The notes under the pieces: model-generated
Databases searched by the model: none
Told to the model about the DNA's origin: nothing
The model's input: the letters and a program-made list of their open reading frames with translations, nothing else
Position numbers and translations under genes: made by a program
Source of the DNA: an uncultured Candidatus Saccharibacteria bacterium
GTDB lineage: Bacteria > Patescibacteriota > Minisyncoccia > Phycocordibacterales > UBA2100
Direction of reading: 5' to 3'
Length of the DNA: 64,000 nucleotides
NCBI GenBank assembly: GCA_964648335.1
Contig: CAZYLZ010000007.1
Location: 1,034 to 65,033, forward strand
Part shown: positions 3,659 through 31,932 of the stretch, in pieces
How positions within the stretch are numbered: position 1 is the first letter of the stretch
How the letters are laid out: each line of letters begins with the position of its first letter

Positions 3659-4342
3659 ATGCAAAAAATAATCGCCACTCTCATAGTCTTACTCGTTGCT
3701 GTATCTGCGTTCTATTACTGGTCGCATCCGCAGGCACCACAAGCGGCGATCACGAACGACTTTTACAGCACCACGACGCCTGCGGTCGCCGACGTAGCTC
3801 CAGTTTCACCTGCCGCAGTGCCTGCAGCCGCACCGGCCGCACCAGTAGCAGCGCCCCAGGCCGTCTCGCACGCGACTATCAAGACAAATCTGGGCGACAT
3901 CACGCTCGAGCTCTTTGCAAAAGACGCGCCCAACACCGTGGCCAACTTTGCAAAACTCGCAACGAGCGGCTTTTATGCCCAGACCAAGTTCCATCGCGTC
4001 ATTGCCGGCTTTATGATCCAGGGTGGCGATCCATTCTCGAAAGACGACACCAGGCCCGAGCTCTGGGGTCGTGGCGGTCCGGGCTACAAGTTCGATGACG
4101 AGCTGTACCCTAACAACCACAACGTTGTCGGCACCATATCGATGGCGAACTCGGGGCCCAACACTAACGGCAGCCAGTTCTTTATCAATGTCAACAACAA
4201 CACCAACCTCGACGGCAAGCATACCGTCTTTGGCAAGGTCACGGCGGGTATGGATGTCGTAAAGAAGATCGAGTCCGTGCAGACAGCTGGCGAAAATCGA
4301 CCGGTAACGCCCATGGCGATCGAGAGCATCTCGGTCTACTAA
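3659..4342 (+). CDS. Cyclophilin-type peptidyl-prolyl cis-trans isomerase with an N-terminal membrane anchor or signal and an Ala/Pro-rich linker
   Basis: Motifs FHRVIAGFMIQGGD, GTISMANSGPNTNGSQFFI and KHTVFGKV are diagnostic of cyclophilin PPIases. The start is taken at MQKIIATLIVLLVAV (a TM segment). Confidence 0.85.
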   Translation: MQKIIATLIVLLVAVSAFYYWSHPQAPQAAITNDFYSTTTPAVADVAPVSPAAVPAAAPAAPVAAPQAVSHATIKTNLGDITLELFAKDAPNTVANFAKLATSGFYAQTKFHRVIAGFMIQGGDPFSKDDTRPELWGRGGPGYKFDDELYPNNHNVVGTISMANSGPNTNGSQFFINVNNNTNLDGKHTVFGKVTAGMDVVKKIESVQTAGENRPVTPMAIESISVY

Positions 4343-4345
4343 AAG

Positions 4346-4376
4346 AAAACCGCCGCCATACAGGTATGGCGGCGGG
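4346..4376 (-). terminator. Hairpin ccgccgccata-caggt-atggcggcgg; terminator of the first DjlA-like gene
   Basis: Perfect 11-bp stem. The minus-strand tail is UUUUCUUUU. Confidence 0.6.
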
Positions 4377-4378
4377 GG

Positions 4379-4918
4379 TTAGATCTTGCGGCTGCGCAGA
4401 TACATCGCGTATTCGTACGCCTGCTTGATCATGTCGAACTTCGTATTACTTCCGAGTCCGTCGGGAGCCGTATCGGGGTGATACTGGCGTGCCTTGCATC
4501 GGTAGGCCTCCTTGATTGTCTTCTGCGAATCGGCGGCCGTAATGCCGAGGATGGCGTGACAGTGCGTTTCTGCGTAGTTCTGCGGAGCACGCTTTTTGGG
4601 CTCGGGCCGCAGATGCCGTGTTCGCGCATCGACTTCGTCTTCGAACTGTTTGAAGTCGCGCATAACGGCCTCGGCTTCTTTTGCCTTGGCTGCCTCATCG
4701 GGGCTCACGTAACCCGGGCGAAACCGCGGCGACCCGCGCGTACCGCCAAGGTTCGGTGCTGTCCGTCTGCTATACCTAGGCTGATTTGCCTTAATAAAGC
4801 GCCAACACAGCGAGAAGAAGAGCCATGAGCAGAACATCGGCAAGACCACCCAGATATTGTTCTTGAACACGCTCATGAGGAGCATGAACACAATCATGTT
4901 TACGAGGAAGTATCCCAT
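4379..4918 (-). CDS. DjlA-like membrane protein with a C-terminal J domain (copy 1)
   Basis: N-terminal TM helices. The C-terminus reads ILGITAADSQKTIKEAYRCKARQYHPDTAPDG..FDMIKQAYEYAM, a J domain with the HPD motif. Confidence 0.7.
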   Translation of the reverse strand: MGYFLVNMIVFMLLMSVFKNNIWVVLPMFCSWLFFSLCWRFIKANQPRYSRRTAPNLGGTRGSPRFRPGYVSPDEAAKAKEAEAVMRDFKQFEDEVDARTRHLRPEPKKRAPQNYAETHCHAILGITAADSQKTIKEAYRCKARQYHPDTAPDGLGSNTKFDMIKQAYEYAMYLRSRKI

Positions 4919-5035
4919 GGGAACCTGCTTTCTGTAGGGCAGGGAACTGCCGCGGTTGATCGGGCTCGCGCGATTAAACCACGTTTTATACCAAATAGCA
5001 ATCTATTGGATACAGCGCCAACAGTGCGCAGTGGT

Positions 5036-5073
5036 GCAAAGAAAACCGCCGCCATACGCATGTGGCGGCGGGG
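5036..5073 (-). terminator. Near-identical copy of the 4346..4376 hairpin (ccgccgccatac-gca-tgtggcggcgg)
   Basis: Part of the tandem duplication. U-rich tail on the minus strand. Confidence 0.55.
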
Positions 5074-5910: not shown

Positions 5911-5968
5911 GGTTCCCTCCGATGTCTGTCGGTATTGTATACCGTTGTAATGCTGCGCGACAATACGT

Positions 5969-7013
5969 CTACAGCGCGACGATCTTTTCCCACGGAAACT
6001 CATCGCGGCCAAAGTGTCCGTACGCTGCCGTTGCCGCAAAGATAGGACGGCGCAACCCGAGCCGCTCGATTATTGCTTGCGGTCGAAAGTCAAACTTCTT
6101 CTCTACATCGGTTATCCGCTCGCCATGCTCGTTAACCGCCTCGACCATCACGGGCTCTGCGCGCCCAATGGCATACGCCACCGACACGAGCGCACGCTCT
6201 GCGTATCCGTTTGCCACCAAGTTCTTTGCCGCAAAGCGTGCCATGTATGCGGCCGATCTATCTACCTTGGTCGCATCTTTTCCGCTAAAGGCGCCACCAC
6301 CATGCGGAAACAGTCCGCCATAGGTATCGACCATGAGTTTGCGACCAGTAAGTCCGGCATCGGCTGCAAAGCCACCTTCGACAAACCGCCCCGTCGGGTT
6401 TACCAAGAGTTCTATCCGGCTAACATCGCCCAACACCGGCTCGAACAGGTGAGTAACGAGCGCACGATGTATCTCGTCTTGCGAGGTATCTTCTGCATGC
6501 TGGGTACTTACGAGTGCGGTCGCAACGACTCCGTCTTTGATGGTTACCTGCGTCTTGCCGTCGGGGCGCAACCACTCAAGTGTTTTAGCAGTGCGGAGCT
6601 CCTGGAGCTTTTTGGCAAGCGCATGTGCGAGCACCACACCCTGCGGCAGGTACTGCGGCGTCTCGTTGGTGGCATAGCCGTACATGATGCCCTGATCGCC
6701 CGCACCACCCGTATCTACTCCCATCGCAATGTCGCCCGATTGCGCTGCAATATGCTCGAGTATCGTAAGGGCATCGTCGTAGCCGATGCGTCTATATACA
6801 CCTTCCGCTATCGCCTTGTAATCGACCGTTGCGTTGGTTTTTACCTCGCCACCTAATACGAGTATGCCGTGGCTGCCAAAGGATTCGACCGCAACGCGAG
6901 TACGGGTCTTGGGTCAAGCAGGCGTCGAGAATTGCGTCCGAGATTTGGTCGCACACTTTGTCGGGGTGGCCTGCGGTTACCGATTCTGTCGAGTAGGTGC
7001 TAAATGTCTGCAT
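5969..7013 (-). pseudogene. metK: S-adenosylmethionine synthetase (MetK) interrupted by a frameshift near 6895-6905
   Basis: The N-terminal ORF (6792..7013) reads [39 protein letters not shown], then leaves frame. The neighbouring frame continues [42 protein letters not shown]... into the C-terminal ORF (5969..6724) with the motif GGGAFSGKD. Loss or gain of 1-2 nt at ..gacccgtactcgcgttgcggtc.. restores one 348-aa MetK. Confidence 0.8.
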
Positions 7014-7024
7014 ATAAAGGGTCC

Positions 7025-7185
7025 GCGCACGGATAATAAATAAACTCCTTCTCAGGAGCGTGCGCGTTTATCTTCCCCCGAGAGGGGTTTGGATGGGGCA
7101 CCTTCTAGAGACCGTAGTCGCTATGGGTTGCCGGCGGTTCGTAGAGCCAAAACTCTCCCCGCACTCTTGATACATATTTCCGACC
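7025..7185 (-). promoter_or_regulatory. SAM-I (S-box) riboswitch in the metK 5' leader
   Basis: The minus-strand RNA reads AUCAAGAGUGCGGGGAGAGUUUUGGCUCUACGAACCGCCGGCAACC...GGUGCC...CCCCUCUCGGGGGAAGAUAAAC. This matches the S-box consensus (AUCAAGAGAGG.GGAGGGA.UGGCCC.AUGAA.CCCGGCAACC ... GGUGCC ... AGAUGAG). A downstream helix CGCGCACG/CGUGCGCG encloses CUCCU..AGGAG, an SD-sequestering structure, just before the metK AUG. Confidence 0.6.
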
Positions 7186-7195
7186 TAATTCTAGA
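7186..7195. repeat. 10-bp direct repeat TAATTCTAGA (left copy) at the edge of the low-GC island
   Basis: An identical 10-mer recurs at 10567..10576, just past the other end of the low-GC block. Confidence 0.35.
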
Positions 7196-7310
7196 GTACA
7201 AGAAGTTCATGTAACAAACAAGATGCGCGTCAAAATAAAAGGCGATTGCTGATCTGGTGGTGATCTTCCGTGCATTTCCCAAAAACGAAGATGTATGGGA
7301 CTATTCATTC

Positions 7311-7658
7311 ATGAAAAGTCTTGAAGAACTAACGCGGGAAATAGTGGCGTTCAGAGACGCTCGTGATTGGAAGCAATTCCATAACCCGAAGGACCTGGCT
7401 ATTTCGTTGGTCTTGGAAGCAACAGAAGTGCTTGAACATTTCCAGTGGAAGAATACAGAAGAAATGTCTACCCATGTCCAGGCAAATAAAACAGATATTG
7501 GCGAAGAACTTGCAGATACCTTGTATTGGATAATCCTTATGTCGAACGATCTTGGTATAGATATTCTCGAGGCACTTGAGCGTAAGATGATTAAAAATAG
7601 CGTTAAGTATCCGGTAGAAAAAGCAAAAGGGAAGCATACCAAGTACAGCAATTTATAG
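7311..7658 (+). CDS. MazG-like nucleotide pyrophosphohydrolase (all-alpha NTP-PPase)
   Basis: LEELTREIVAFRDARDWKQFHNPKDLAISLVLEATEVLEHFQWK..EELADTLYWIILMS is the MazG/YpjD-type EExxE/D signature. GC is about 42%, versus about 60% for the surrounding genome. Confidence 0.7.
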   Translation: MKSLEELTREIVAFRDARDWKQFHNPKDLAISLVLEATEVLEHFQWKNTEEMSTHVQANKTDIGEELADTLYWIILMSNDLGIDILEALERKMIKNSVKYPVEKAKGKHTKYSNL

Positions 7659-7659
7659 C

Positions 7660-9675
7660 ATGAGCTCCATAAAGACTTTTTCCTTTGATACGAATGGCTT
7701 CGACGAAATAAAAAAGTATCACTTTGGGCGAAACTGGCCCGTTGTCTATGTCCTCGAGAATGCAAACGAGATGTATATCGGCGAGAGTACGAGTGCCTAC
7801 TATCGCTGCAAGCAGCACTTCGAAAATCCTGTTCGCAAGCGACTTAAACATGCACACGTAATAACCGACGATGAGTACAATAAGTCCGCGATTCTCGACA
7901 TTGAGTCGTGGTTAATTCAATACATGGCAGCAGAGGGCACTGTTGTGCTCCAGAATGGCAATAAGGGACTTAGAAATCATAATTATTATCAAAAGGAAAA
8001 GTACGAGGCAAAATTTGAGGTGATTTGGGAAGAGCTGATACGAATGTCGTTGGTTAAAAAAACTTTGCTCGAAATCAGGAACTCTGACTTGTTCAAGTTT
8101 TCGCCTTATAAGGCGCTAAACGATGAACAATTTCTCTTCGTCAAGAAATTGTTTAAAGACATAGCAGCAGGCACGGCATCAACGTACATAGTGCAGGGTT
8201 CTGCCGGAACCGGTAAAACGGTACTCGCGTCATTCTTGATTAAATATCTGCGTGATCAAAAAGAAACAGCGCACCTCAGAGTTGGGCTTGTAATTGGAAT
8301 GTCGTCACTGCGTCGGACCATGCAAAAGGTTTTTGCACAGACGCCTGGCCTTAAGGCAAATATGGTACTTGGACCAAATGATGTGGTCAAAGAGAAATAC
8401 GATATTTTGATAGTCGATGAGGCACATCGCCTAAAGCGTCGTAAAAATCTTGGGGCAGCATTTAAGGCATTTGATGATGTCAATCGAAAACTTGGATTTT
8501 CGAAGGAAAGTAATCAGCTCGATTGGATACTTAAATCCTCTAAGCAACAGATCTTTTTTTATGACCACGCACAACGGGTCATGCCAGCTGACATCGATCC
8601 TGAAGTATTTGCGGAATTGCCTGCACAACGATATGTGCTAGCTACGCAAATGCGAGTACAAGCCGGGGCCGAATATATCGAAGCGATACACAATATTTTA
8701 TCTAATGGTTCCGTAAAAGGAGTCTCAGTACAAGACTATGATTTTCGTATCATCAATGACTTTGAAACACTCCATACTCTAGTTAAAGAAAAAGATGCCG
8801 AATACGGTCTTGGCAGAATTGTGGCTGGTTATGCGTGGCCATGGGTTTCAAATCCGGATCGAAATAAAAATCCGGCAGCGTACGATATCGAGCTCGATAA
8901 CTACAGAATGAAGTGGAATTCTGTTGCGCAGGATTGGGTAAATTCTCCCAACGCAATTAACGAAGTAGGCTGCATTCATACAATTCAAGGCTATGGCTTA
9001 AATTATGTGGGCGTCGTCATTGGCCCCGAGGTAAAGTTCAATCCTGAAACAAAACAGCTCGAAATAGATTCCGATCATTACTACGATAAAAACGGCTACA
9101 CTGGTATAGACGAAAACGAACTGCGCTACTGCATTCTTAACATATATAAAACGCTCCTTACACGCGGAATTTCAGGAACCTATGTATATATCGTCGATGC
9201 GCATCTTAGGAATAGATTCAAAGATGTCTTTGGCGAGAATACTGTCGTTAAGAAGGGCGGTCCGATACTGTCGCCTCTCAAAGTTTCGACCGTAAGAGTA
9301 CCGTTTGTAGGATCAGCTCCGTGTGGCAACCCTCTTTTCGGTGAAGAAAATCGGGAAGGGTACATAGAAGTAGATAAAACTAAAATAAAGCCAGGGTTTA
9401 AGTACTTTGTATTACGTGCCGAAGGAGATTCCATGAACAAAGCTGGGATCTTAGACGGAGACCTGGTGCTTTGTAGGCAACAACTCAAGGCCGATACCGG
9501 TGATAAGGTAGTGGCACTTCTGGGTGATAACGTAACCATCAAAGAGTACGGTCCGCGTGAAAACGGCGTTCGTTTACTTTTGCCACGAAGTACCAACAAA
9601 ACACATCAAGCGATAACGCCGGAAGAAGGTGCCACGGTGCAGGGCATCGTTCAGGAAGTTCTGGTGAAAGAATAA
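7660..9675 (+). CDS. Three-domain fusion: N-terminal GIY-YIG nuclease, DUF2075-type P-loop/DEAH ATPase, C-terminal LexA/UmuD-like S24 autopeptidase
   Basis: GIY-YIG at aa ~25-60: VVYVLENANEMYIGESTSAYYRCKQHFEN. ATPase: Walker A GSAGTGKT (aa 180-187) and DEAH at ILIVDEAHRL (aa 249-258), plus the conserved DUF2075 segments GYAWPW and TLLTRG. C-terminus (aa ~545-645): VPFVGSAPCGNPLFGEEN..LRAEGDSMNKAGILDGDLVL..GDKVVALLGDNVTIKEYG..VRLLLP aligns motif-for-motif with LexA/UmuD. The Cys555-Gly556 scissile bond is at nt 9322..9327, the Ser591 codon at 9430..9432 and the Lys628 codon at 9541..9543. Low GC. Confidence 0.75.
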   Translation: MSSIKTFSFDTNGFDEIKKYHFGRNWPVVYVLENANEMYIGESTSAYYRCKQHFENPVRKRLKHAHVITDDEYNKSAILDIESWLIQYMAAEGTVVLQNGNKGLRNHNYYQKEKYEAKFEVIWEELIRMSLVKKTLLEIRNSDLFKFSPYKALNDEQFLFVKKLFKDIAAGTASTYIVQGSAGTGKTVLASFLIKYLRDQKETAHLRVGLVIGMSSLRRTMQKVFAQTPGLKANMVLGPNDVVKEKYDILIVDEAHRLKRRKNLGAAFKAFDDVNRKLGFSKESNQLDWILKSSKQQIFFYDHAQRVMPADIDPEVFAELPAQRYVLATQMRVQAGAEYIEAIHNILSNGSVKGVSVQDYDFRIINDFETLHTLVKEKDAEYGLGRIVAGYAWPWVSNPDRNKNPAAYDIELDNYRMKWNSVAQDWVNSPNAINEVGCIHTIQGYGLNYVGVVIGPEVKFNPETKQLEIDSDHYYDKNGYTGIDENELRYCILNIYKTLLTRGISGTYVYIVDAHLRNRFKDVFGENTVVKKGGPILSPLKVSTVRVPFVGSAPCGNPLFGEENREGYIEVDKTKIKPGFKYFVLRAEGDSMNKAGILDGDLVLCRQQLKADTGDKVVALLGDNVTIKEYGPRENGVRLLLPRSTNKTHQAITPEEGATVQGIVQEVLVKE

Positions 9676-9811
9676 GAGCCGCTCGAAATATCTGTGTACG
9701 TACTCCTTATCCAACGAAATTAGCTGAATGTGGATTGTGTCGAGGGATAGTAAACAGGCACCCATTGATTGATTAGCGAAATCACTGCAATAAGGGCAAA
9801 GCAAAACGACA

Positions 9812-10483
9812 TCAGGTACCGTTAAACATATAACCCTCGTTAGGGAAAAGTTCCTCGATCATTTTTTCGAGTTTTGCGCCATCGATCATTTCGATGCCGA
9901 CCCGCGTGCCGTCCACGATTGCCTCTTTGCTATACGATCCCGTGGTCACAAATATGCCGCGTTTGGTTCCATGCAAGACAAACGAGCCCAAGAATTCACG
10001 AATTTCGTTTGATCCCACCGATCCTGCATAGCGCTTTACCTGAACCGCAGTGATTTCGCCCTTCTTGGTAAGGAGAATATCGATTCCTTTGTCATTACTG
10101 CGTCGTGTTACTTCTACTTCGTATCCTTGGTGAGCAAAAAGCCTCGAGATATGGTGCTCGAACTTAAACGGGTCCATGTCGCGAAACACCGACACAACGC
10201 GTTGAATACCCAACTCTTGTGCCTCGGTGTGCCAGGCATTCGATTCGTCGATCTTTCCCTTAACAAATCGATACGTGATAACTCCGGCGTATCCAAGACA
10301 AGCCAAAGCTCCAAGGGTAAGAATAGTTTGCCAATAGCCCGCACCGACGTCGATCAGGGATCGTACAATCGGAGCACCAGCTGCGATCAAAAGTACTGCC
10401 CCGACCGCAAGCTCGATGCTGTTGTTCCGTCTTGTCCTGCGCCTGCGTCGTGCCATATATGAGTGTTCTACCGCGATTTCCAT
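9812..10483 (-). CDS. Membrane-anchored restriction endonuclease, Mrr-like catalytic domain
   Basis: N-terminal TM helices. The C-terminus FEHHISRLFAHQGYEVEVTRRSNDKGIDILLTKKGEITAVQVKRYAGSVGSNEIREFLG..GIFVTTGSYSKEA is the Mrr_cat (PD-(D/E)xK) pattern. Confidence 0.65.
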   Translation of the reverse strand: MEIAVEHSYMARRRRRTRRNNSIELAVGAVLLIAAGAPIVRSLIDVGAGYWQTILTLGALACLGYAGVITYRFVKGKIDESNAWHTEAQELGIQRVVSVFRDMDPFKFEHHISRLFAHQGYEVEVTRRSNDKGIDILLTKKGEITAVQVKRYAGSVGSNEIREFLGSFVLHGTKRGIFVTTGSYSKEAIVDGTRVGIEMIDGAKLEKMIEELFPNEGYMFNGT

Positions 10484-15504: not shown

Positions 15505-15604
15505 AGGTAGAGAGTATACACTAGAATGGCAAAAAGCCCAGTCGTCAAGTATCTGGCCAGGAGCGACGAGCGACAGCACCGGTCGAGCCGTGTACAATCG
15601 TTCC

Positions 15605-16147
15605 ATGAACCGTTACACCTGGCTTGTCGTCATCATCGGTCTTTTGGCTGCGGCCGCCATGGCGGGGTCGGGACTTATGGCACGCAAAGGTATGGCTGCT
15701 CCGGTGGCGAAGGGCGCGCCGAGCGTGGAAACAGCGTTGCGCTCCAAGCTCTCACCCCTCCAATACCACGTGACCCAAGAAGACGGCACCGAGTCACCGT
15801 ACGCAAACGAGTATTGGGACAATCACGAAGACGGCATTTATGTCGACGTCGTATCGGGCGAGCCGTTGTTCTCGTCGAAAGACAAATACGATTCGCACAC
15901 GGGATGGCCGTCGTTTACCAAACCGCTTGTGCCCGAGAACATTACCGAGAAAAAAGATTCGCTCCTCGGGTACGAACGTACCGAAGTGCGGTCCAAGCAG
16001 GCCAACTCGCACCTGGGACATGTATTTACCGACGGCCCGGCACCCTTGGGTTTGCGCTACTGCATGAACTCGGCAGCGATGCGCTTTATCGCAAAAAAAG
16101 ATCTCGTCACCGAAGGTTACGGCGACTATGCACGGCTCTTTCAATAA
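15605..16147 (+). CDS. msrB: Peptide methionine-(R)-sulfoxide reductase MsrB with an N-terminal membrane anchor or signal
   Basis: [58 protein letters not shown] is the SelR/MsrB signature. The N-terminus [18 protein letters not shown] is hydrophobic. Confidence 0.85.
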
Positions 16148-16150
16148 GTC

Positions 16151-17125
16151 ATGAACCCTACGCATCTTGCGGGACTCGCATTTCGCTTCGGGTTGGGTAC
16201 AGTTGTTTCGTGCAAGCGGATTGCAGAGGGCGTGCTTAACGATAATTACCTTCTCAAAACCACTGCTGCAAACTATTTCATCAAGCAGGTACGGGCGAAG
16301 CGGGTACCAGACGTACCATATATTGCCGCAGTCGAGTCGCTGATGGCGTCGCGCGAGATTCCGGCGATATGCATGCTGCGCGATCGCGACGGCAATCCTT
16401 CGGTCGCGTTCGAGGACAAGACGTACACACTCTATCCCTATGTCGCGAGCGACCGGTCGCATGCGTACATCGAGGCCGACTACGAACGTATGGGCGCGCT
16501 CTTGGCACGCATCCACGAAGTAGGAAGTCATGATATACCTCCGTTTTTACAAAGCCGCGCGTTTGCTCGCGCTGATGGCGATTTGGCACGATCAAGTCTC
16601 GAAGGGTATGCGCGAGAGCTGCGCGGACAGCCACAGAACAAGACTGATCGCGATTTCTTGGCATATATCGATCTCAAGCTGTCGCTCATGAATACGCCAA
16701 AGGCACCGGAGCTGCCAAACGTTACCTTGGGTCATGGCGATTATCATGCTGGCAACCTCCTTATCGACAAGAAGACCCGTGCGATAGTAGGCGTGTGCGA
16801 TTGGGAAAAAGCCGAGATGACGCCGAGGGCGTACGAGGTCGCCCGCTCGACTCTCTATACCTGTTTCGACGGTACTATCGCAGAAGAGAAGGCGGTACGC
16901 TTTTCGCGAGCATTCTTGCGGGGCTACCTGCGCGCAAACCCGCTCGACGAAAGCGAACTTCGTGCTGGCTTCGCCATGCGGTTCGAGCGTTCGGTACGTT
17001 CGAATTGGATTGAGGCGGCGTATTACGACCGCGGCGACTCTCGTTCGAACAAATTTATCGCGAGCGAGATGCGCACGCTCGAACGGTTCGTGCGTGGCGA
17101 CCTGCTCGAGAAGATCCTGTCTTGA
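16151..17125 (+). CDS. Phosphotransferase-family protein (APH / homoserine-kinase-II-like)
   Basis: The motifs LGHGDYHAGNLLID and GVCDWEKAE (Brenner's HGDxxxxN plus DxE) mark the kinase-like APH fold. Confidence 0.65.
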   Translation: MNPTHLAGLAFRFGLGTVVSCKRIAEGVLNDNYLLKTTAANYFIKQVRAKRVPDVPYIAAVESLMASREIPAICMLRDRDGNPSVAFEDKTYTLYPYVASDRSHAYIEADYERMGALLARIHEVGSHDIPPFLQSRAFARADGDLARSSLEGYARELRGQPQNKTDRDFLAYIDLKLSLMNTPKAPELPNVTLGHGDYHAGNLLIDKKTRAIVGVCDWEKAEMTPRAYEVARSTLYTCFDGTIAEEKAVRFSRAFLRGYLRANPLDESELRAGFAMRFERSVRSNWIEAAYYDRGDSRSNKFIASEMRTLERFVRGDLLEKILS

Positions 17126-17168
17126 TAACGCGCCTTGGCCCGACTGTGCCGCGGTATACTTATACCGA

Positions 17169-17906
17169 ATGAAGTCGTATCACGTGCGCATGTATCATCC
17201 GTTTCCCGCGATGCGCTCGTGGGAGCACCTGGTGGCGATCGCCGGCATCGTGGTGGTGCCGCTTCTCATGTTCGTGGGCTTCTCGCTCTTTACCGGAATT
17301 GCATTGCCGAGCGTGTTCGAGAATCTCGGCGTCTCGATCTACCGCATCGTCACTGCGCTCATCATCTCGATAGTGTTGGGTTGGACGGCTGCGGTTCTGT
17401 TTTATCATGGACCGCGCTCAAAGGTAGCGCTCCCAGCCTTCGATGTCTTGCAGAGCCTCCCAACATCGGCGACTTTGCCGATAGCGACATTGTACCTGGG
17501 TCCGAGCGACGCGACGGTCATCATCTTTCTGGTGTTTACGATCGTCTGGCCGATGTTCTTCACGGTGGTGAGTTCCCTCAAACAGGTACGAAAAGACTGG
17601 GTCGAGGCGGTGCAGATGTCACGGATATCGGGGTTCGATTATCTGCGCCTCTTCTTGGTGCCTGTCTCGGTTCCGGGACTCGTCACCGGAACCATCATTG
17701 GGCTCGGTGAAGGTTGGGAGACGCTCATCGCGACCGAGCTTATCGTGCATGCGCCGCGGGGCTTAGGATCGTTCTTCGATTCGTTCTCGACCGACATATG
17801 GTCTACCACCTTCGGTATCTTGGCACTTCTTGCGGTCATATTCGCAATCAACAAGCTCGTGTGGCTGCCACTGCTCGAATGGAGCCATACCCTCATAGAA
17901 GAATGA
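17169..17906 (+). CDS. ABC transporter permease (binding-protein-dependent inner-membrane component; NitT/TauT-like)
   Basis: Six hydrophobic helices. The EAA-like loop reads QMSRISGFDYLRLFLVPVSVPGLVTG. The stop overlaps the start of the ATPase gene. Confidence 0.7.
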   Translation: MKSYHVRMYHPFPAMRSWEHLVAIAGIVVVPLLMFVGFSLFTGIALPSVFENLGVSIYRIVTALIISIVLGWTAAVLFYHGPRSKVALPAFDVLQSLPTSATLPIATLYLGPSDATVIIFLVFTIVWPMFFTVVSSLKQVRKDWVEAVQMSRISGFDYLRLFLVPVSVPGLVTGTIIGLGEGWETLIATELIVHAPRGLGSFFDSFSTDIWSTTFGILALLAVIFAINKLVWLPLLEWSHTLIEE

Positions 17907-17907
17907 T

Positions 17908-18654
17908 ATGAAAAACGCCATCACCGTTTCAAATGTGCACAAGACCTATCTGCAGGGCGGCCACCGCGTCGAGGCGCTTAAGGATATCGATCTCACGATA
18001 GCCGAGGGCGAGTTCTTCGTGCTATTGGGCCCTTCGGGCTCGGGCAAATCGACGCTCTTGCGCATCATCGCGGGGCTCGACCATGCGACGTCGGGCACCG
18101 TCGCATTTGCGCCGGGGTTGTCTAACAACGACATTGCGTTTGTCTTTCAGCAGTTCGGTCTCTTGCCATGGCTGTCGGTCTCGGAAAATATCACCATGAA
18201 TCTTGTTGGTAGAAACGTGCCCGAAACCGATCAGCACGAAAAAACGAAGCGCGCCTTGGAAGAATTTGGTCTTGGCCGGTTCGCACATCATATGCCACGA
18301 GAGCTCTCCGGTGGGATGCGTCAGCGCGTGGGGCTTGCACGTGCGTTCGTAACCGAACCCAAAATCATATTTCTGGACGAGCCGTTCTCGGAACTCGATT
18401 TCTTTACCGCTGCGGAATTGCGTAAAGAACTGGTCACCTTGTGGCAGAAGACGGGCTGCACCATCGTGATGGTGAGTCACAACATTGCCGAGGCGATAGA
18501 GCTGGCGGACCGTATTGCCGTCTTTAGCGCCCGTCCGGGTACGGTACAGAGTCTCATACAAAACGATCTTAAGCGTCCGCGCTCGCCGCGCTCGAAGCCT
18601 TTTTTTGCCATGGAAGACGAGTTAACGGCGTTTCTTACCAAGGCAGCCGCATGA
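17908..18654 (+). CDS. ABC transporter ATP-binding protein
   Basis: Walker A GPSGSGKSTL, signature LSGGMRQRVGLARA, Walker B IIFLDEPFSELD. Confidence 0.9.
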   Translation: MKNAITVSNVHKTYLQGGHRVEALKDIDLTIAEGEFFVLLGPSGSGKSTLLRIIAGLDHATSGTVAFAPGLSNNDIAFVFQQFGLLPWLSVSENITMNLVGRNVPETDQHEKTKRALEEFGLGRFAHHMPRELSGGMRQRVGLARAFVTEPKIIFLDEPFSELDFFTAAELRKELVTLWQKTGCTIVMVSHNIAEAIELADRIAVFSARPGTVQSLIQNDLKRPRSPRSKPFFAMEDELTAFLTKAAA

Positions 18655-22037: not shown

Positions 22038-22064
22038 AAAAGCGCCCTATGTGGGGCGCTTTTA
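22038..22064. terminator. Hairpin agcgccc-tatgtg-gggcgct plus TTTT between convergent genes
   Basis: Seen directly. Confidence 0.55.
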
Positions 22065-23087
22065 TCGTATCAGCATACCGTCTCCGAACGAGAAGAACTT
22101 GAATCCTCTGGTAAGGGCAAGTGCGTAGAGTGCCAAGAGCCTTTCGCGGCCGACCAACGCAGACACGAGCATAAGCAATGACGACCTGGGTACGTGAAAG
22201 TTCGTTACAAGGCCGGTCGCGACCTTGAAGCGATATCCCTCTTGGATAAAAAGCGAAGTGATGCCTTTGGCTGCTGGGATTTTCTTGGCATATACGCTCT
22301 CGAGCGTACGCAGCGCCGTGGTGCCTACCGGAATAATCGGGCGGCCGGCTTTGCGAGCACGTTCAATCTTGGCTAGCGATGCCTTAGTAACCTCGTAATA
22401 CTCCGTATGCAACCGCTTGGTGTCGAGATGCGTCTGCGTAAGCGGCGCGAAGGTGCCCATACCAACGTGCAGCGTTACGGTAGTACTGTCAAAGCCTGCC
22501 TTTTTGAGCTTTGCTATAAGGCCTTTCGTAAAGTGCAAGGACGCAGTGGGTGCGGCAACGGAGCCGGCAGACTTTGCAAATACTGTCTGGTACTTGGTGC
22601 GCAGTTCTTTTTCCGAAAGCTTCGTCTGCTTGAGGTAGGGTGGGATGGGCGTCGTCCCGTATTTTTGCAGCACCGCAGCGAACGGTTTGGTGCCGATATA
22701 CCTAAGATGGTAGACGCTCTCGTTCTTTGCGGTCACCGCCAGCGACCCATTCGAATCGATGGAGAGCACGGTACCTATTGCGAGGGTGCGCGGCGAAAGG
22801 GCAGTGATCTCGCTGGCATTAAAAGAAAGACACAAGAGCTCGACCTTGCCGCCGGTCGGTAGGAAGCTAGGGAGGCGTGCAGGGATTACCTTGGTATCGT
22901 TAAAAACGAGGAGAGTATTCTTGGGCAGATACTGAGCCAGATTTCGAAACGTATCAAACGAGACTTCTTTGGTGGTGCGGTCGTACACCAACAGCTTTGC
23001 CACATCGCGTGGCATCGTCGGCTCGAATGCAATCGAGGCCTCAGTTATTGGGTAGTCGTATTGGGAGAGTTCCTGCTCGAGGTCCAT
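22062..23087 (-). CDS. queA: S-adenosylmethionine:tRNA ribosyltransferase-isomerase
   Basis: Sequence LSQYDYPITEASIAFEPTMPRD..KLLVYDR..NDTKVIPARL...LHVGMGTFAP.. across its full 341 aa is characteristic of QueA. Confidence 0.9.
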   Translation of the reverse strand: MDLEQELSQYDYPITEASIAFEPTMPRDVAKLLVYDRTTKEVSFDTFRNLAQYLPKNTLLVFNDTKVIPARLPSFLPTGGKVELLCLSFNASEITALSPRTLAIGTVLSIDSNGSLAVTAKNESVYHLRYIGTKPFAAVLQKYGTTPIPPYLKQTKLSEKELRTKYQTVFAKSAGSVAAPTASLHFTKGLIAKLKKAGFDSTTVTLHVGMGTFAPLTQTHLDTKRLHTEYYEVTKASLAKIERARKAGRPIIPVGTTALRTLESVYAKKIPAAKGITSLFIQEGYRFKVATGLVTNFHVPRSSLLMLVSALVGRERLLALYALALTRGFKFFSFGDGMLIR

Positions 23088-23133
23088 AGGCTTGCACTGT
23101 ACCGGTAAATGATAAAAAGAAAAGCAAGCAAAA

Positions 23134-23154
23134 TCCCCGGCTGTGTAAGCCGGG
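23134..23154 (-). terminator. Hairpin ccccggc-tgtgtaa-gccgggg with a U-tract on the minus strand
   Basis: It lies 3' of the 75-aa gene. Confidence 0.5.
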
Positions 23155-23163
23155 GACGGAAAT

Positions 23164-23391
23164 TCAAGCTGCGAGAACGGTCGAGATCACAATGCCGAGA
23201 TCATCCAGGCGCAGGTGGATCTCTCCGGAATGGTGGACCGTCATCACGGCGCTTCTTTCGCCGGGGTCTTCGACGGCTTTCCTGATCGCCTCAAGATACG
23301 ACTCGAGAAGGAGTCGCTTGTTCTCGTCTAAGATGATTACTATTGGTGCCGGCACCGAAGTCGCTACGGCGGTCTCTTCGAGAGATGTCAT
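23164..23391 (-). CDS. Hypothetical small protein (75 aa) between tgt and queA
   Basis: Intact ORF in the queuosine operon context. No family recognised. Confidence 0.4.
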   Translation of the reverse strand: MTSLEETAVATSVPAPIVIILDENKRLLLESYLEAIRKAVEDPGERSAVMTVHHSGEIHLRLDDLGIVISTVLAA

Positions 23392-23451
23392 GGATGCCTC
23401 GTAGGGTTGATGCTGGACGAACTATACGATGAATTATTTTTTGCAAGAAAA

Positions 23452-24600
23452 TCAGATCTCGTCGTTCTTTATCTTCTCGCGCAGGTCTGCCGCGAGCTTG
23501 TTGAGGTAAAAGACGTTGTGGATGGTCGCGAGCTTCATGCCGGTAAGCTCTTTTGCGCGAATGAGGTGGCCTACAAAACTGCGTGAATAGTTTTGACACG
23601 TAGGGCATGCGCAATTGGGGTCTATGGCAGTCATGTCGTCGAGAATGGTCGCCTTCTTGAGGTCGATGCGGCCCACGCTCGTAAACGCAGTGCCATGGCG
23701 TGCGTAGTGGGTAGGCGCGATGCAATCGAAGGTGTCCGCACCGGACTCCATGATGTACGGAAAGTCTTCGGGGTGCCCGACTCCCAAGAGGTGACGCGGC
23801 TTTTCTTTGGGCAATGCGTCAGTCACGTGCGAAACGTTAAGAGCCAGGCTTTCTTTGTCGTAACCGAACTCGCCACCGATTCCATAGCCGTCAAAGTCCA
23901 TCGCACCTAATATCTGGGCACTTTCGATGCGCATGTCTTTAAAGCTGCCGCCCTGCACGATGCCGTAGAGGGCCTGCGTTTTGGAAGTGCGTGCGTCCAA
24001 ACACAACTGCGCCCAGCGATGCGTCTTGTCGATAGACTTCCTCATGTACTCGGCATTGGCGAGTGGGGAAGGGCATTCGTCGAAGGCAAACATGATGTCG
24101 GCACCGATGTCCTGCTGTATCTCGATCGAAATCTTAGGGCTTAGGTATACCTTGTGTCCGTCGATAGGCGAGGGGAACTCGACGCCGTCTTCGGTGATCT
24201 TGATGTTCTTGGGTTTTGAGTGCTGCTCGAGCGTCTTTTCTCCCGGATCTTTTAGTATCTTGCCGACGCCATGATCGCGGCCGAAGCCAAAGCTAAACAC
24301 CTGGAATCCGCCCGAGTCGGTCATGATGGGCCGCTTCCAATTCATGTACTTGTGCAATCCGCCCGCCTTCTTGATTATCTTTTCGCCAGGAGTGAGGTGT
24401 AGGTGAAAGGTGTTGGCGATGAGCATCTGCGAACCTAAGACTGCGGTCTCTTCGTTGTCGAGCGTGCGCAAGGCGCCGCGAGTGGCGACGGGCACGAATG
24501 ATGGTGTCTCGACCTCGCCGTGCGGCGTCTTTAATATGCCAAGTCGTGCGCGGCTCTTCTTAGATTCTTTCAGTATGGAAAACTCGAATCCTTGTGACAT
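23452..24600 (-). CDS. tgt: Queuine tRNA-ribosyltransferase
   Basis: FEFSILKESKKSRARLGILKTPHGEVETPSFVPVATRGALR...GGFQVFS... and the zinc site CxCxxC..H (CACPTCQNYSRSFVGH). The start is taken at MSQGFEF. Confidence 0.9.
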   Translation of the reverse strand: MSQGFEFSILKESKKSRARLGILKTPHGEVETPSFVPVATRGALRTLDNEETAVLGSQMLIANTFHLHLTPGEKIIKKAGGLHKYMNWKRPIMTDSGGFQVFSFGFGRDHGVGKILKDPGEKTLEQHSKPKNIKITEDGVEFPSPIDGHKVYLSPKISIEIQQDIGADIMFAFDECPSPLANAEYMRKSIDKTHRWAQLCLDARTSKTQALYGIVQGGSFKDMRIESAQILGAMDFDGYGIGGEFGYDKESLALNVSHVTDALPKEKPRHLLGVGHPEDFPYIMESGADTFDCIAPTHYARHGTAFTSVGRIDLKKATILDDMTAIDPNCACPTCQNYSRSFVGHLIRAKELTGMKLATIHNVFYLNKLAADLREKIKNDEI

Positions 24601-24671
24601 GGTAGCTAGGATACTGTGATTATACGAATGTGCAAAGAAAAACGACCCCGCAAGCGGGGCCGTCGATGTAG

Positions 24672-25082
24672 TTACTTCTTGCCTGGCCACCAGGCTTTCC
24701 AATCGACGCCCGGCAATGACGGCGTGTATTCGCGCGCCTGCTTGAGCGTTTTGGTAAAACGGTCGCCAACGATCGCATTGAAGTCAGCAATCGATTTCGC
24801 CAGTACCTCGGCACCGCTTTTGGAATGCATCTTGACGATATACCAATAGAGCATACCGAGGTTCTGCATCTCTTGGGTGCTGCGCCAACCAGTCTCGGCG
24901 CGCGGCTGTAAGAACAGCACCATTTCAGGGATACGCCGGTCTTCATCGGTTGGCGGTACTGATGCCTCCGCCAGCGCTTTCGCGTGCGCGAGGATGGCGA
25001 TTCGCGAACGCTTTCCGTCTTCGCTTGGATCGATGGCGAGCCAGGCGAGGTAGGCGGTCACCATGACAGGAACACGAATCAT
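24672..25082 (-). CDS. Hypothetical protein (136 aa)
   Basis: RBS AAGGAGA upstream. No family recognised. Confidence 0.45.
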   Translation of the reverse strand: MIRVPVMVTAYLAWLAIDPSEDGKRSRIAILAHAKALAEASVPPTDEDRRIPEMVLFLQPRAETGWRSTQEMQNLGMLYWYIVKMHSKSGAEVLAKSIADFNAIVGDRFTKTLKQAREYTPSLPGVDWKAWWPGKK

Positions 25083-25652: not shown

Positions 25653-25965
25653 GACAGTCTCCGTTGAGTTGTGCCGGAAGCTACCCCGGCTGCTAGCTGA
25701 TGGAAGCATACACCACGGACTCATCTTGTCGCCAAAGAAGCTATTTTATGTAGGATTTGAGCCATTTTTACATCACGGCTCGACATGCTGGCAACTGAGT
25801 GATGTATTCTAGGACGACATTGACTTATGGTCAAAATTTTGGTATACACATTGACGGCACAAGGGGTCGGTTAACGCCGGCCCTTTCTAGTCCTTTGACA
25901 ACCGCATAGGTTCAAGACTGGTTAGTCAAAGAAACTCACTAATTCCAACAGAAGGGAGTTTGACC

Positions 25966-27336
25966 ATGGCTACAAATAGCAAGACGACAGCGCAGTCTCG
26001 TCCTAAGACCATGACGGTCGAAGCGGTCGAGGCGGCACATCGTCGTAATGCGGCGCAACTGCAGGAGCGTAATCGCACCGCGCAGGAAACTGCGGCGCGC
26101 GTTAAGGAGACGGTCGATAAGTTCCAAGCTGCTTTGCAGCGTGGCGACATCGACCAGACCCAGATCCTCGCCGCCGACTTCAAGAGCGCAAACGAAGCGG
26201 GACTAAAGCAGACCCGCGACATTGCACAGGTACTGATGGCGCTGCAGGAATCGTCGAAAGACACCGGCATCGTCCTCAAGAATGTCGGCGAACGCAATGA
26301 TCAAGAGCAGGCCGTGATCGACGCAGCCGTCGCGGTGCAAGCCGCGAAGGAGGCAGAACTGAGAGCCGCTAACGACGAGCTCGCAAAGGCGAAAAATGCA
26401 TGGTTCAAGGATCGTGCCGAGGCTGCCGCGAAAGACGCGATCGCCAAGGCCGAAACCGGACTCGCAATCGCGAAGGAAGCGGTTACGACCGCGACCCAGA
26501 TGGCGGAGAAGATGAAGCGCGACAGACTCGTCAACATGAGTCTCGACAAGTCGATCGCGCAGCTCAGCGAGATCACGCAGCAGGTTGTTGCGCTCGCACG
26601 TGACCGTATCGCCGACATCGAGGGTAACCTCGGGGCGGTGAAGGCTGGTCGCGAAGAGATCGCCGAAAACTTGAAGCAGTACGCACTCGATGCCGAGGCC
26701 CGAAAGGCCGAGGTGCTCGAGAAAACGGCTGCGATCAAGAACCTCGAAGATCAGCATGCCGAACAACAAGAGAATTCATCCGAATGGATGGATCTCAAGG
26801 CGAAGATCGAAGCCGAACGCAGCGAGCTCACGAGGCTCGAGGCGGCGCACAACAAGTCGTTCACCCTTCTCAATGACGGGCAACGCTTCCTGCAGATGTA
26901 CCATGTGCAGGAGACGGCCCAACGCGAAGCGCTCGGCTTCCATGAGATCTGGATCGCGACTTTGGAGAGCGGCGAGCGGGAACGCTCGATACTTTACACG
27001 TCGCATCTCGGCATCGTGAAGGCGGCCGGCGATCAGCAGATGCTGTCGGATGTCGATGCTGTGGCAACGCAGAACGACGAAGACATCACACTGCTTTCGT
27101 CGCGGCATCTGGCCGCGATGCGCAATAGCACACTCAAGCGTGGTCAGGCCCTCCCGGGTCAGATTAAGCGTTTGACGCAGATCAGCGAAGCGGATTCTAT
27201 GAGCAAGGCGTCGTTCAACGACGGCATGGAGAAGCTTGCCAGACAGTTCCAGGAACTGTACGGCGAGACCGCGGGCACAACGAATCCTGCCAACTACATG
27301 CCCGAAGATTCCGGCACTGTGACGCCGGCTTCGTGA
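25966..27336 (+). CDS. Large coiled-coil protein (TelA/PspA-like in composition only); first gene of a six-gene operon
   Basis: RBS AAGGGAG 7 nt upstream of the ATG. About 450 aa, almost entirely heptad-like Ala/Glu/Lys/Gln-rich helices. Confidence 0.55.
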   Translation: MATNSKTTAQSRPKTMTVEAVEAAHRRNAAQLQERNRTAQETAARVKETVDKFQAALQRGDIDQTQILAADFKSANEAGLKQTRDIAQVLMALQESSKDTGIVLKNVGERNDQEQAVIDAAVAVQAAKEAELRAANDELAKAKNAWFKDRAEAAAKDAIAKAETGLAIAKEAVTTATQMAEKMKRDRLVNMSLDKSIAQLSEITQQVVALARDRIADIEGNLGAVKAGREEIAENLKQYALDAEARKAEVLEKTAAIKNLEDQHAEQQENSSEWMDLKAKIEAERSELTRLEAAHNKSFTLLNDGQRFLQMYHVQETAQREALGFHEIWIATLESGERERSILYTSHLGIVKAAGDQQMLSDVDAVATQNDEDITLLSSRHLAAMRNSTLKRGQALPGQIKRLTQISEADSMSKASFNDGMEKLARQFQELYGETAGTTNPANYMPEDSGTVTPAS

Positions 27337-27415
27337 AGAAACAAAGGCCTTTGGCCGCAACTACAAAGGGGCCCGTTGGGCCCCTTTTCTCTAACCCGCA
27401 GCAAAGGAGAAGCTC

Positions 27416-28609
27416 ATGCACGACGTGCATAGCCGCGTCGAAGTAGATCCGGTGAGATACAAAGATTATCTTGGCCTGTTGGTCGAGGTACTCGAGAGTC
27501 TCAGTCGGTACTATGGCGACAGCGAGCGAGAAGGGCGCACCCGCGAAGAAGAATCGATGGCTCTGTACGCGAACAAGTTTTTCGAGACCGTGAAGGCGCT
27601 TCGGCTTAAATTCCTTCACAGCCCCGTCTACCTTTCGCGACCAGGCGTCGATCTTACCGACTCGGGTTTCCCGAACTTCTACGACATCATGCAGCTCGAT
27701 GCCGATCTCTCCACCAGGGGAGAGCGGCTTCCAAAGCTCCCGCCGATCGACGTCTTGAAGGAATTGCTCCTCGAACATGTGATGATCGTTCCGTCACTGG
27801 AACAAGAAGATGATCACGTGGCGAAGATGCATCACTATCTCTGGCAGATCTCTGAGCGCGCGTATCTGGAATCACTCGACCTTCGGGTCCAGTTCTTTCA
27901 GTTCACGCCAGGGAAGCTCGAGCAGGTACCTCAAGACGAGTTCCGCGAAGAAGGACGACGTTCGTACACCTTCTCGTGGGGCTGCTACGATCCACAAACG
28001 AACAGGCCGTCCGTGTACTTCATGCTGTTCACACAGGATGAGACCGAGCGGCCGCTCGACGAGGTCAACAATCCCGAATACGCGAAGTTTCTCGACACCG
28101 TGCGGCATGTCGCCGCACGCGCGCCGAAGCAGCTGAAGGTAATCGGGCTCGGCCTCGACGAGCTCTTCAAGAACCTCTACCCGAAAGCTATCAAGCGGTT
28201 CAATATCGGACCCTTGGTGTCGCCGATGCTCTACAAGGGGTTGGGCGAAGGAATCGGACACGATACGTTTGCTCTGAGGCTCTTGCCTCTGTTCGAACGG
28301 TCCGAGCTGAACGACGACGATTTCGTCCTGTTGTTCAACACGGAATTCGTGTACTCCGAGCGCGAAGAAGTGCCAGAGAAATTCCTGCCGTTCGGAAAAC
28401 AGAAAGTCAGGCAGATGTTCTATGTGCCCAAGAACGACCGCGAGCTCTTGCGGCGCGGCGCGGGGGCATTTTTGCCCTACGCGCTCATGCCACACAGGCT
28501 CCGGCAGCACATCACTCCTGCCATGCTCGAAACCATCCCCGAATTCAACAACGGCACGTCCTTGTTGGTGTACGGGGAAAACAACGGAGAAGTGATAAAT
28601 GTCGGCTAA
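27416..28609 (+). CDS. Hypothetical protein (397 aa); operon gene 2
   Basis: RBS AAAGGAGAAG upstream. Its stop overlaps the next gene by 11 nt. Confidence 0.5.
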   Translation: MHDVHSRVEVDPVRYKDYLGLLVEVLESLSRYYGDSEREGRTREEESMALYANKFFETVKALRLKFLHSPVYLSRPGVDLTDSGFPNFYDIMQLDADLSTRGERLPKLPPIDVLKELLLEHVMIVPSLEQEDDHVAKMHHYLWQISERAYLESLDLRVQFFQFTPGKLEQVPQDEFREEGRRSYTFSWGCYDPQTNRPSVYFMLFTQDETERPLDEVNNPEYAKFLDTVRHVAARAPKQLKVIGLGLDELFKNLYPKAIKRFNIGPLVSPMLYKGLGEGIGHDTFALRLLPLFERSELNDDDFVLLFNTEFVYSEREEVPEKFLPFGKQKVRQMFYVPKNDRELLRRGAGAFLPYALMPHRLRQHITPAMLETIPEFNNGTSLLVYGENNGEVINVG

Positions 28610-30590
28610 GACTGGCTCGGAGATCCCAATCACTCAGGGCGATATCGCGAAATTCTTCAAGAGCGCGAGTATGCTTCTCGTAAGCGTGTCTCATGCACCC
28701 AAGAAGGATCTCGCTGCCTTGCGCAGTGATTCGGCTCCGCAAATGAAAGCGCCAGGACTCATGTTCGGCTCTGGCCAAGCGAGTCCTGAATCGCGGCAGA
28801 GCATGGCGATCCTCAAGGTCGCCAAAGAGCTCAACCAAGGCGACGATCTCTTCGATGAGAACGTGAACGTCGCTTTGAACGCGGTGCGGACCGGTCTTCA
28901 GATCGGATTCCACATCGCCTACTTGTACGGCAAGACCTCGGGACTCGAGGCTCTGCAGGCAAGGAGAAAGCGCAACGAGCTCAAGCTCGATGCAGAAATC
29001 GCTGAGTGGACAAAGAAGATGGAAGCGCAAGCGGCCATCACACTGTTCGTCGCCGCGAGCTACGTCACCTGGAAGCTCTCAGGCCTCAAAGCCGAAGAAC
29101 TCTCTGGCGTGAACGTGTCGTTCCTTGGATTGCCCGAGCTCGTCTTGGGCGGCCAGGCACAGGCGACAGCTGGAATGCTGTACCACTTCGGCGCATATGC
29201 GAGCACTGTGCAAAGCGGGCTCGAGTTCCTCAAGCTCACCGACATGTACTTTCGCGCCGTCCTCGACGACGTGAAGATGCAATCCAAGAGCTTCGTGGAA
29301 TCGACCGCGGACTTTACCGACAAGAACTATCGCCTCGAGGGCTCTGCCTTCACGGTGAGCGGATTCGAAGCGGCAGCGTCCGGTGGTCGCAGGCTGGTGG
29401 AGTTCAAGCCTGTCTACGCGAAAGAGATCGTGGGTAACGTCGAGGCGAAGCGTTTTACGCTCCGTGTCGCACGGTTCCTCATGGCCTACGACGTGAAGAG
29501 AAAAATGAACCCGATGATGGAATTCGGTGCGTTCCCGTGGATGTACCTGTATAGCGGGGAACCGGGCACTGGCAAGACGATGCTCATCAAGCTCGCAATG
29601 AGCATGGTGCGCGATCACTGCCAGGTGCTCGATATTCCGTTCAGAGTCCACGAACTGCCGGGCGACCTCATCAGTACCTACCAAGGCGGCTCGGCCGAGC
29701 GGTTCGAGCAATGGTGGTCGGTACTCCGGAATCCCGGAGAGATCATCGTGGCTCCGATCGACGACGCAGAGAACATCTTTACCGAGCGATCGGGCGAGAA
29801 CGTCTCGGCAGGCAGCAAAGAAGTCGTGGCGTCGTTACTGCGATGCACCGAAGGCGCGACCGCGATCAATCGCGGCAACGTCATTGTGCCCTGGGCGACG
29901 AACATCCCCGACATGGTGGATGCGGCAGCGATGTCGCGCATCATGGCGAAGATCCCGGTGCCTGGGGCGGTGACACGCAACGACTTCAACGACCAGATGC
30001 GCATGTGGGGCGACGGCCTTCAGAAGCTTTCCCCCGGTATCGTCGACCTCGCATGGCCGAACGATTACCGGTATCTGGCCGATCAAGACATCTCGATGGT
30101 CCCGGATGCGCAAAAGCGCAGTCGGGATGCGCTCGTCGAGTTCAAAGACGAACGCTTGGTGCGCCTGTACGACGAAGTGCGGGCGCAGGGGATTTCTTTG
30201 CAGTCGTACGATCTGCACGGAACGCTCTTCGCCAGCATCAAAAAACATATGAACCGCTTCACCTCGCGTGAGGTCCGCAACATCACGACGGTGGTGATGT
30301 CGAGGTTGTTCGACTTCGACTTTCCGCCCGAATGGCTTTCCGATCGTGCCGCTTTCGTCGAGAAGGACTATGACACCAAGCGTGCCATGATTCTCGAGCT
30401 CGCGAAGGTGAACATGAAAGGACAGAAGCTCTCTGAGATACTTTTCGAGGAGATGGTGCGGTCGGTAAACGCGATGGTAGAGATCATAGACGGCGGACGT
30501 ACCCGCCGTGTCAGAAAAATGGCAGAAGACCTCCTGGAACGTTCCGAGGCTCAAGAGCTCGCGGTGCGTATGAAAGGAGGTTCGAAATAG
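28599..30590 (+). CDS. AAA+ ATPase (classic clade: Vps4/katanin/FtsH-like module) with a ~290-aa N-terminal domain of unknown function
   Basis: EIVGNVEAKRFTLRVARFL (box II-like). Walker A YSGEPGTGKTMLIKLA. Walker B region GEIIVAPIDDAENIF, with DD rather than DE. Second region of homology ATNIPDMVDAAAMSRI. The similarity to Vps4/FtsH spans the whole module. Confidence 0.75.
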   Translation: MSAKTGSEIPITQGDIAKFFKSASMLLVSVSHAPKKDLAALRSDSAPQMKAPGLMFGSGQASPESRQSMAILKVAKELNQGDDLFDENVNVALNAVRTGLQIGFHIAYLYGKTSGLEALQARRKRNELKLDAEIAEWTKKMEAQAAITLFVAASYVTWKLSGLKAEELSGVNVSFLGLPELVLGGQAQATAGMLYHFGAYASTVQSGLEFLKLTDMYFRAVLDDVKMQSKSFVESTADFTDKNYRLEGSAFTVSGFEAAASGGRRLVEFKPVYAKEIVGNVEAKRFTLRVARFLMAYDVKRKMNPMMEFGAFPWMYLYSGEPGTGKTMLIKLAMSMVRDHCQVLDIPFRVHELPGDLISTYQGGSAERFEQWWSVLRNPGEIIVAPIDDAENIFTERSGENVSAGSKEVVASLLRCTEGATAINRGNVIVPWATNIPDMVDAAAMSRIMAKIPVPGAVTRNDFNDQMRMWGDGLQKLSPGIVDLAWPNDYRYLADQDISMVPDAQKRSRDALVEFKDERLVRLYDEVRAQGISLQSYDLHGTLFASIKKHMNRFTSREVRNITTVVMSRLFDFDFPPEWLSDRAAFVEKDYDTKRAMILELAKVNMKGQKLSEILFEEMVRSVNAMVEIIDGGRTRRVRKMAEDLLERSEAQELAVRMKGGSK

Positions 30591-30609
30591 ACATCAAGAC
30601 CTGCGGCGA

Positions 30610-30631
30610 TTGTGCCGCAGGTCCAAACGCG
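30610..30631 (+). promoter_or_regulatory. Intra-operon hairpin cctgcggc-gattgt-gccgcagg between the AAA gene and gene 4
   Basis: Perfect 8-bp GC stem with no T-tract. It may be an RNA-processing or attenuation site. Confidence 0.3.
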
Positions 30632-30644
30632 AAGGGAGCGATAC

Positions 30645-31916: not shown

Positions 31917-31932
31917 CAAGAAGGAGAATCGC

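Follow-up and report, generated by a model that had tools for sequence, protein, structure and literature searches.

The metK locus and its leader

The window, by which is meant the whole 64-kb stretch of DNA analysed here, carries on its minus strand a gene for SAM synthetase, metK, which ORF translation placed at 5969-7013 in two frames. Codons 1-39 (MQTF...GHPDK...LTQDPYS; 6897..7013) follow the frame of the ATG at 7013 and make up part of a PF00438 match, and codons 40-348 with the stop codon (RVAVE...GAGDQG...GGGAFSGKD...FPWEKIVAL; 5969..6898) lie in the +1 frame. Codon 39 is TCG (6899-6897), codon 40 is CGC in the +1 frame (6898-6896), and the two frames overlap at 6897-6898. The initial annotation had described metK as split in adjacent frames into residues 1-39 and about 40-348, and both the translation and a tblastn search bear this out, with the joined MetK matching the window as two abutting HSPs in frames -3 and -1. 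The join, which had been put at about 6895-6905, was located at 6895-6899. The single uninterrupted frame of ~350 codons is absent from the metK of the window, in which the frame changes after codon 39. Each of the 120 nearest homologs is read in one frame without interruption.

The predicted product from the normal metK start is 73 aa long, of which only the first 39 residues are MetK. It ends in an out-of-frame tail of 34 junk codons on the minus strand (6792..6896, by translation), closed by a stop at 6792-6794, and this N-terminal ORF has been called as a gene nowhere. The downstream frame comprises 309 codons (RVAVESFG...EKIVAL), with its stop at 5969-5971. Its first ATG, GTG or TTG lies at 6724 (Met98) and opens a 251-aa ORF; because there is no in-frame start before that position, a 251-aa metK fragment is what gene callers report. 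When the two frames were joined, the reconstructed MetK of 348 aa matched PF00438, PF02772 and PF02773 in order, with Pfam E-values, for the reconstruction only, of 4e-29, 1e-33 and 6e-53. The match of the N-terminal domain spans the join (residues 7-84 to profile positions 4-81), and the alignment to the solved MetK structures 1fug, 7ll3 and 3iml is gapless there (E ~1e-100). The catalytic motifs GHPDK, E44, GAGDQG and GGGAFSGKD are all present in the reconstructed protein.

The leader of metK contains a SAM-I (S-box) riboswitch aptamer on the minus strand at 7065..7176 (RF00162, model positions 1-108), which ends 52 nt upstream of the ATG. Its score of 48.2 bits against a gathering score of 44.4 agrees with the earlier description of the riboswitch as intact. 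Two further minus-strand elements come from a consensus scan only: a terminator-like hairpin GCTCCTGAGAAGGAGT followed by the T-tract TTATTTATTA (7034..7059), which is likely the riboswitch expression platform, and a promoter-like site (TTGTTA, an 18-nt spacer and TAGAAT; 7188..7217) immediately upstream of the aptamer. The same riboswitch, with similar scores, lies upstream of the intact metK of three other contigs (L001, L002 and L009). In L003, a Kaiserbacteria relative, a glmS ribozyme (RF00234, 52.6 bits) was observed at 6186-6379, directly downstream of an intact metK.

Other genes in the window

Directly upstream of the metK leader lies a block of low GC content (7257-10483; ~44% GC in 8001-10000 as compared to ~56% for the window). 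Its genes specify a MazG-like NTP pyrophosphatase, a restriction endonuclease of the Mrr family and a 671-aa protein in which a helicase of the SLFN-group-3 type is joined to an S24 (LexA-like) peptidase. The block has the look of a defence island gained by horizontal transfer. An uncharacterised cluster at 25960-34184 consists of large ORFs on the same strand, mostly without a Pfam match (458, 397, 207 and 543 aa), around a 663-aa AAA ATPase and a 434-aa DUF6638 protein; two adjacent ORFs of 380 and 350 aa at 35137-37328 also lack a Pfam match. UvrC, at 57881-59197, is 438 aa long and has GIY-YIG, UVR and RNase-H-like endonuclease domains, and its C-terminal HhH region was not detected. Typical UvrC proteins are longer, at ~600 aa.

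Two nucleotides are missing at the join

The CGCG run at 6895..6898 on the minus strand, where the frame shifts, was compared with the intact gene of L004 and with the 120 nearest MetK homologs. The segment at the join reads D-x-x-[S/A]-R-V-A-[V/I]-E without a gap in 120/120 of these homologs, and R40 and E44 are invariant in the alignment. Since both residues are invariant and the segment is gapless, the metK of the window must be 2 nt short rather than 1 nt too long. Intact relatives such as L004 (JBEEJY010000006.1) and L001 (JAGWYL010000005.1) encode a MetK of ~350 aa with 72-76% identity to that of the window. In L004, at 73% amino acid identity, DPYSRVAVE is encoded by GAT CCG TAC TCG CGC GTT GCC GTC GAG, and the window reads GAC CCG TAC TCG CGT TGC GGT CGA A. 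DPYSRVAVE is thus shared by both, but in the window it is out of frame and minus one CG, the ancestral CGCGCG, or (CG)3, having been reduced to the remnant CGCG. The stretch had been called GC-rich, a description that does not fit its composition, as positions 6001-8000 have ~50% GC as compared to ~56% for the window.

Recurrence of the join across assemblies

Exact-protein look-ups with the 251-aa MetK fragment and the flanking MazG-like and DnaJ-domain proteins as queries recovered contigs of the same lineage from three Logan assemblies (L081, SRR12487046; L082, SRR35242010; L086, SRR23702522), one ENA assembly made with SPAdes (L085, ERZ4216102) and one JGI assembly (L089, 3300045330). Two additional contigs, L091 (JGI 3300045331) and L090 (JGI 3300045377), stop short of the join and were left out of the join count. 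At its two ends L090 (Ga0490019_120210) carries 49 nt and 29 nt of unrelated sequence (1-49 and 944-972); it gives its metK fragment a spurious MERVLA- N-terminus and is probably a chimeric low-coverage assembly. An exact look-up with UvrA returned no match, probably due to a different called start, and a literature search with the sample accessions found nothing.

The exact join sequence of the window is present in all five of the other assemblies that reach it. These come from five other samples and different pipelines and are 99.3-100% identical to the window: the three Logan contigs show 99.97-100% identity, and L089, at 99.3-99.5%, can be told apart as a strain by its SNP patches and a ~660-bp indel. 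Three non-synonymous differences near the contig end of L085 were set aside as probable errors, the coverage of that contig being 1.7x. An intact allele of the lineage was not found in a collection of 5.8 billion proteins, where the best full-length match is 76-77% identical, and the 90% cluster of the 251-aa fragment has members from the window lineage only. When JGI metagenome contigs were scanned with a gapped DNA pattern for either allele, there were 0 matches; this collection evidently does not include the JGI contigs of the lineage.

Of the ~64 ORFs predicted in the window, approximately 50 were compared with family libraries. All of those with a family match were full length, among them UvrA/B/C, TyrRS, PurA, MurB, Ddl, PGM, Tgt, QueA, CdsA and PlsC, indicating that the assembly is not generally prone to indels. 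Overlapping ORFs on the same strand at 16151/16962, 55171/55872, 59657/60352 and 40602/41009/41677 were considered as further frameshifts and rejected, as Pfam identified them as separate complete genes.

Strain variation around metK

Except for the deletion, metK, its promoter, its SAM-I riboswitch and its terminator look undecayed, and so do ~60 neighbouring genes. The structural matches, the Pfam domains and the alignment of 120 homologs all support the earlier view that the rest of the gene is conserved, and with it a very recent event. Because strain divergence is almost zero, the otherwise undamaged gene does not discriminate between a pseudogene and recoding; a pristine remainder would be equally expected of a functional, recoded gene.

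Within metK, L089 differs from the window by nine SNPs, six synonymous and three conservative, all of them in 6002-6185. Eight more lie in the adjoining spacer, forming a patch of 17 SNPs in 255 bp (5931-6185), and the rest of metK (6186-7013, ~830 bp) contains none. The ratio of six synonymous to three conservative changes was discounted as a sign of purifying selection, since the SNPs are confined to a recombination-like patch that reaches into the spacer. This 3' patch probably reflects a donor lineage and looks to have been imported by recombination. Three substitutions in columns that are at least 98% conserved (E138Q, L301I and R340F) were considered as signs of decay and rejected, given that the lineage of the window branches deeply, that R340F produces a GR..FPWEK form like that of E. 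coli, and that L301I is a conservative change. These substitutions are either specific to the lineage or a return to the general MetK consensus. SNP patches between the strains also occur at 2426-2595, 4267-4362 and 5058-5062 on an otherwise identical background, and this clustering suggests recombination with an unsampled relative of ~93% identity. L089 additionally lacks 4379-5037 (~660 bp). Of two neighbouring genes for DnaJ-domain membrane proteins, this segment contains one (179 aa), and its absence is a structural polymorphism within the lineage.

SAM demand and supply

An intact gene for the SAM-consuming tRNA-modification enzyme QueA is located on the minus strand at 22062..23087. The protein matches PF02547 over the full profile (4.5e-103), scores 360 bits against the cutoff of 324 of the QueA NCBIfam equivalog, and is identical in the strain from JGI 3300045330. 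An intact enzyme that uses SAM implies that SAM is still needed. The gene belongs to a queuosine-insertion cluster (22062-24702) of queA, a 75-aa ORF and tgt, in which both enzymes are full length.

The initial annotation had pointed to a second metK or a SAM transporter as possible substitutes, and neither was found within the 64-kb window. Family scans and tblastn revealed no second SAM synthetase there, and no protein of the window matched PF00892, the family of EamA-type SAM transporters. The carrier sought would have two EamA domains and ~10 TMS, and no protein in the 64-kb window has more than six predicted TM segments. A NitT/TauT-like ABC transporter at ~17300-18654 was also considered. 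Its substrate is not assignable, and it was not taken as evidence for SAM uptake. The region around it (15590-18654) places MsrB, a kinase resembling APH and homoserine kinases, and the NitT/TauT-family ABC permease and ATPase side by side.

Alternative explanations

The initial annotation had offered three options for the split gene, recent pseudogenisation, programmed frameshifting and a sequencing indel, of which the first is supported, the second is unsupported and the third is very unlikely. If the join were a sequencing or assembly artefact, the true genome would read CGCGCG and encode an intact 348-aa MetK. The remainder of metK is indeed perfect, and assembly errors classically show up as one short indel, but the identical join in separate assemblies makes an artefact very unlikely: all six assemblies that cover it agree (the window, three Logan, one ENA SPAdes and one JGI), a loss of 2 nt outside a homopolymer is not a miscount of the usual kind and would be atypical as a platform error, the ~50 window ORFs scanned revealed no further frameshift, and the protein database holds no intact allele. 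A different way to account for the lesion is redundancy, with a second methionine adenosyltransferase, either bacterial or of an archaeal type acquired horizontally, encoded elsewhere in the genome and the frameshift being the loss of a duplicate. This would explain how an essential function could be lost with QueA kept, and the genome is visible here through 64 kb only. Against it, the 64-kb window holds no second copy, and it is the orthologous copy under riboswitch control, as found in relatives, that is broken. Patescibacteria genomes are also very small and rarely keep duplicates, and redundancy is on balance unlikely.

Programmed frameshifting would instead leave metK functional, with full-length MetK arising when the ribosome shifts by -2 or +1 near UAC UCG CGU U or when RNA polymerase slips. 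The essential nature of metK, its intact regulatory leader and its 309 undamaged downstream codons speak for this, as does the sequence UCG CGU U, which we take to be superficially like the yeast Ty3 +1 site GCG AGU U. As at the programmed +1 sites of prfB (CUU UGA C) and of Ty3, the +1 frame encodes the conserved remainder of the protein. Unlike those sites, the window has neither a slippery codon in the P site nor a stop or rare codon in the A site. An SD-like stimulator is likewise missing, the frameshift is not conserved in relatives, and the family-invariant spacing of MetK would be restored by a -2 shift and not by +1. Read as CCG UAC UCG CGU UGC, the site permits no tRNA re-pairing in the shifted frame, and the slippery motif that was to be looked for at the join is not there. 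No Ser codon is commoner than UCG, and CGU accounts for 19% of Arg codons, so neither is a rare or hungry codon. Frame 0 has no stop for 34 codons past the join, no SD-like element is visible upstream of it on direct reading of the sequence, and there is no homopolymer at the join for transcriptional slippage. Local RNA folding, over 116 nt that take in the join and the sequence downstream of it, was no better than that of shuffled sequences (z = -0.49). A +1 hop would moreover leave MetK lacking one residue within a segment that is gapless in 120/120 homologs and in which R40 is invariant. The frameshift is confined to one near-clonal lineage (at least 99.3% identity) and is conserved in no diverged one; the next relatives, at most 77% identical, are intact, and thousands of other Patescibacteria MetK matches are overwhelmingly full length at ~350 aa, with a few partials at contig ends. 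Recoding is accordingly very improbable. A reversible switch, in which the (CG)n tract would act as a contingency locus and a subpopulation would carry the in-frame (CG)3, draws on the fact that the lesion is exactly one dinucleotide repeat unit and in principle reversible by slippage. It is barely plausible, as a contingency locus would combine a long tract with length polymorphism between isolates, but the tract here is merely 2-3 units (two in the window), 6/6 assemblies share the same length and databases returned no in-frame allele. Known phase-variable tracts are far longer than 2-3 units. Taken as a single claim, that active MetK is still made by a -2 (or +1) shift at UCG CGU U or by such a slippage switch is extremely unlikely; if true, it would be an unreported mode of expression for an essential housekeeping enzyme in Patescibacteria. 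The chance that the gene now encodes a split enzyme, with the 39-residue N-terminal piece and a separately initiated C-terminal piece forming active MetK, is close to negligible. In the E. coli MetK structure the break would presumably map to a loop that links the first helix to the second strand, a position that would favour such an arrangement, but the downstream frame starts only at Met98 and lacks residues 40-97 including the invariant E44, the N-terminal piece is burdened with 34 junk residues, and no split MetK occurs among thousands of homologs.

Discussion

What is directly established is that the deletion is present, that it is reproducible, that it is restricted to one lineage and that no recoding signals accompany it. 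Considered jointly, it is probable that the shortfall is a genuine 2-bp deletion in genomic DNA and that metK of this Parcubacteria-type bacterium is a recent, fixed pseudogene that arose from it. Replication slippage would be the simplest origin for the loss of one CG unit from the CGCGCG run across the Ser39-Arg40-Val41 codons. The deletion would throw metK out of frame past codon 39, giving the 73-aa product, and the 309 downstream codons, with no usable start before Met98, would yield no active SAM synthetase. The lesion appears to be young and fixed in a repeatedly sampled, near-clonal Parcubacteria-type (Patescibacteria) lineage.

Because metK would be pseudogenised, an external or alternative source of SAM is implied. 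The lineage would obtain SAM by uptake from its host or community, or from a gene outside the window. Dependence on exogenous SAM appears to be the most likely state by analogy with Rickettsia and Chlamydia, with an unseen second synthetase as the main alternative. Against reading metK as a pseudogene stands the fact that the gene is normally essential, yet no substitute synthetase or transporter was detected within 64 kb. If the pseudogene reading is true, a Parcubacteria lineage has just lost SAM synthesis with its SAM-dependent enzymes kept, and SAM, which is charged and needs a transporter, would be taken from the host or from neighbours. Such a lineage would offer a concrete, datable case of metabolic erosion still under way in the Candidate Phyla Radiation (CPR), and a starting point from which to identify a SAM uptake route, as yet unknown, in these episymbionts. 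No paper describing metK loss in the CPR was found in the literature searched.

Loss of SAM synthesis is known from other host-dependent bacteria with reduced genomes, and the case described here is a new example of that phenomenon, comprising a single lineage and a single gene. In Rickettsia, metK is degraded in several lineages while the SAM transporter is conserved (PMC1779305); split or frameshifted metK genes occur in R. prowazekii, R. africae and other lineages, and the transporter is RP076, of the EamA/DMT family (PMC1779305, PMC3104491). Chlamydia has no metK and imports SAM via the SAM/SAH antiporter CTL843, a demonstrated transporter (PMC3104491). The absence or inactivation of metK that accompanies SAM scavenging of the Rickettsia and Chlamydia type was found in the window lineage as well. 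As in Rickettsia, a recognisable bacterial-type metK carries a small lesion in a bacterium with a reduced genome that depends on a host, probably so in the window lineage, and still needs SAM, and the loss is recent and lineage-specific. The two differ in that the window belongs to Patescibacteria/Parcubacteria, a presumed extracellular episymbiont rather than an intracellular alphaproteobacterium, and in that its 64 kb contain no EamA-type transporter, its SAM-I riboswitch is intact and its metK has one lesion only. The proposed loss of SAM synthesis with supply from a host is shared with Chlamydia, where the gene is wholly gone, whereas the metK of the window lineage is freshly broken.
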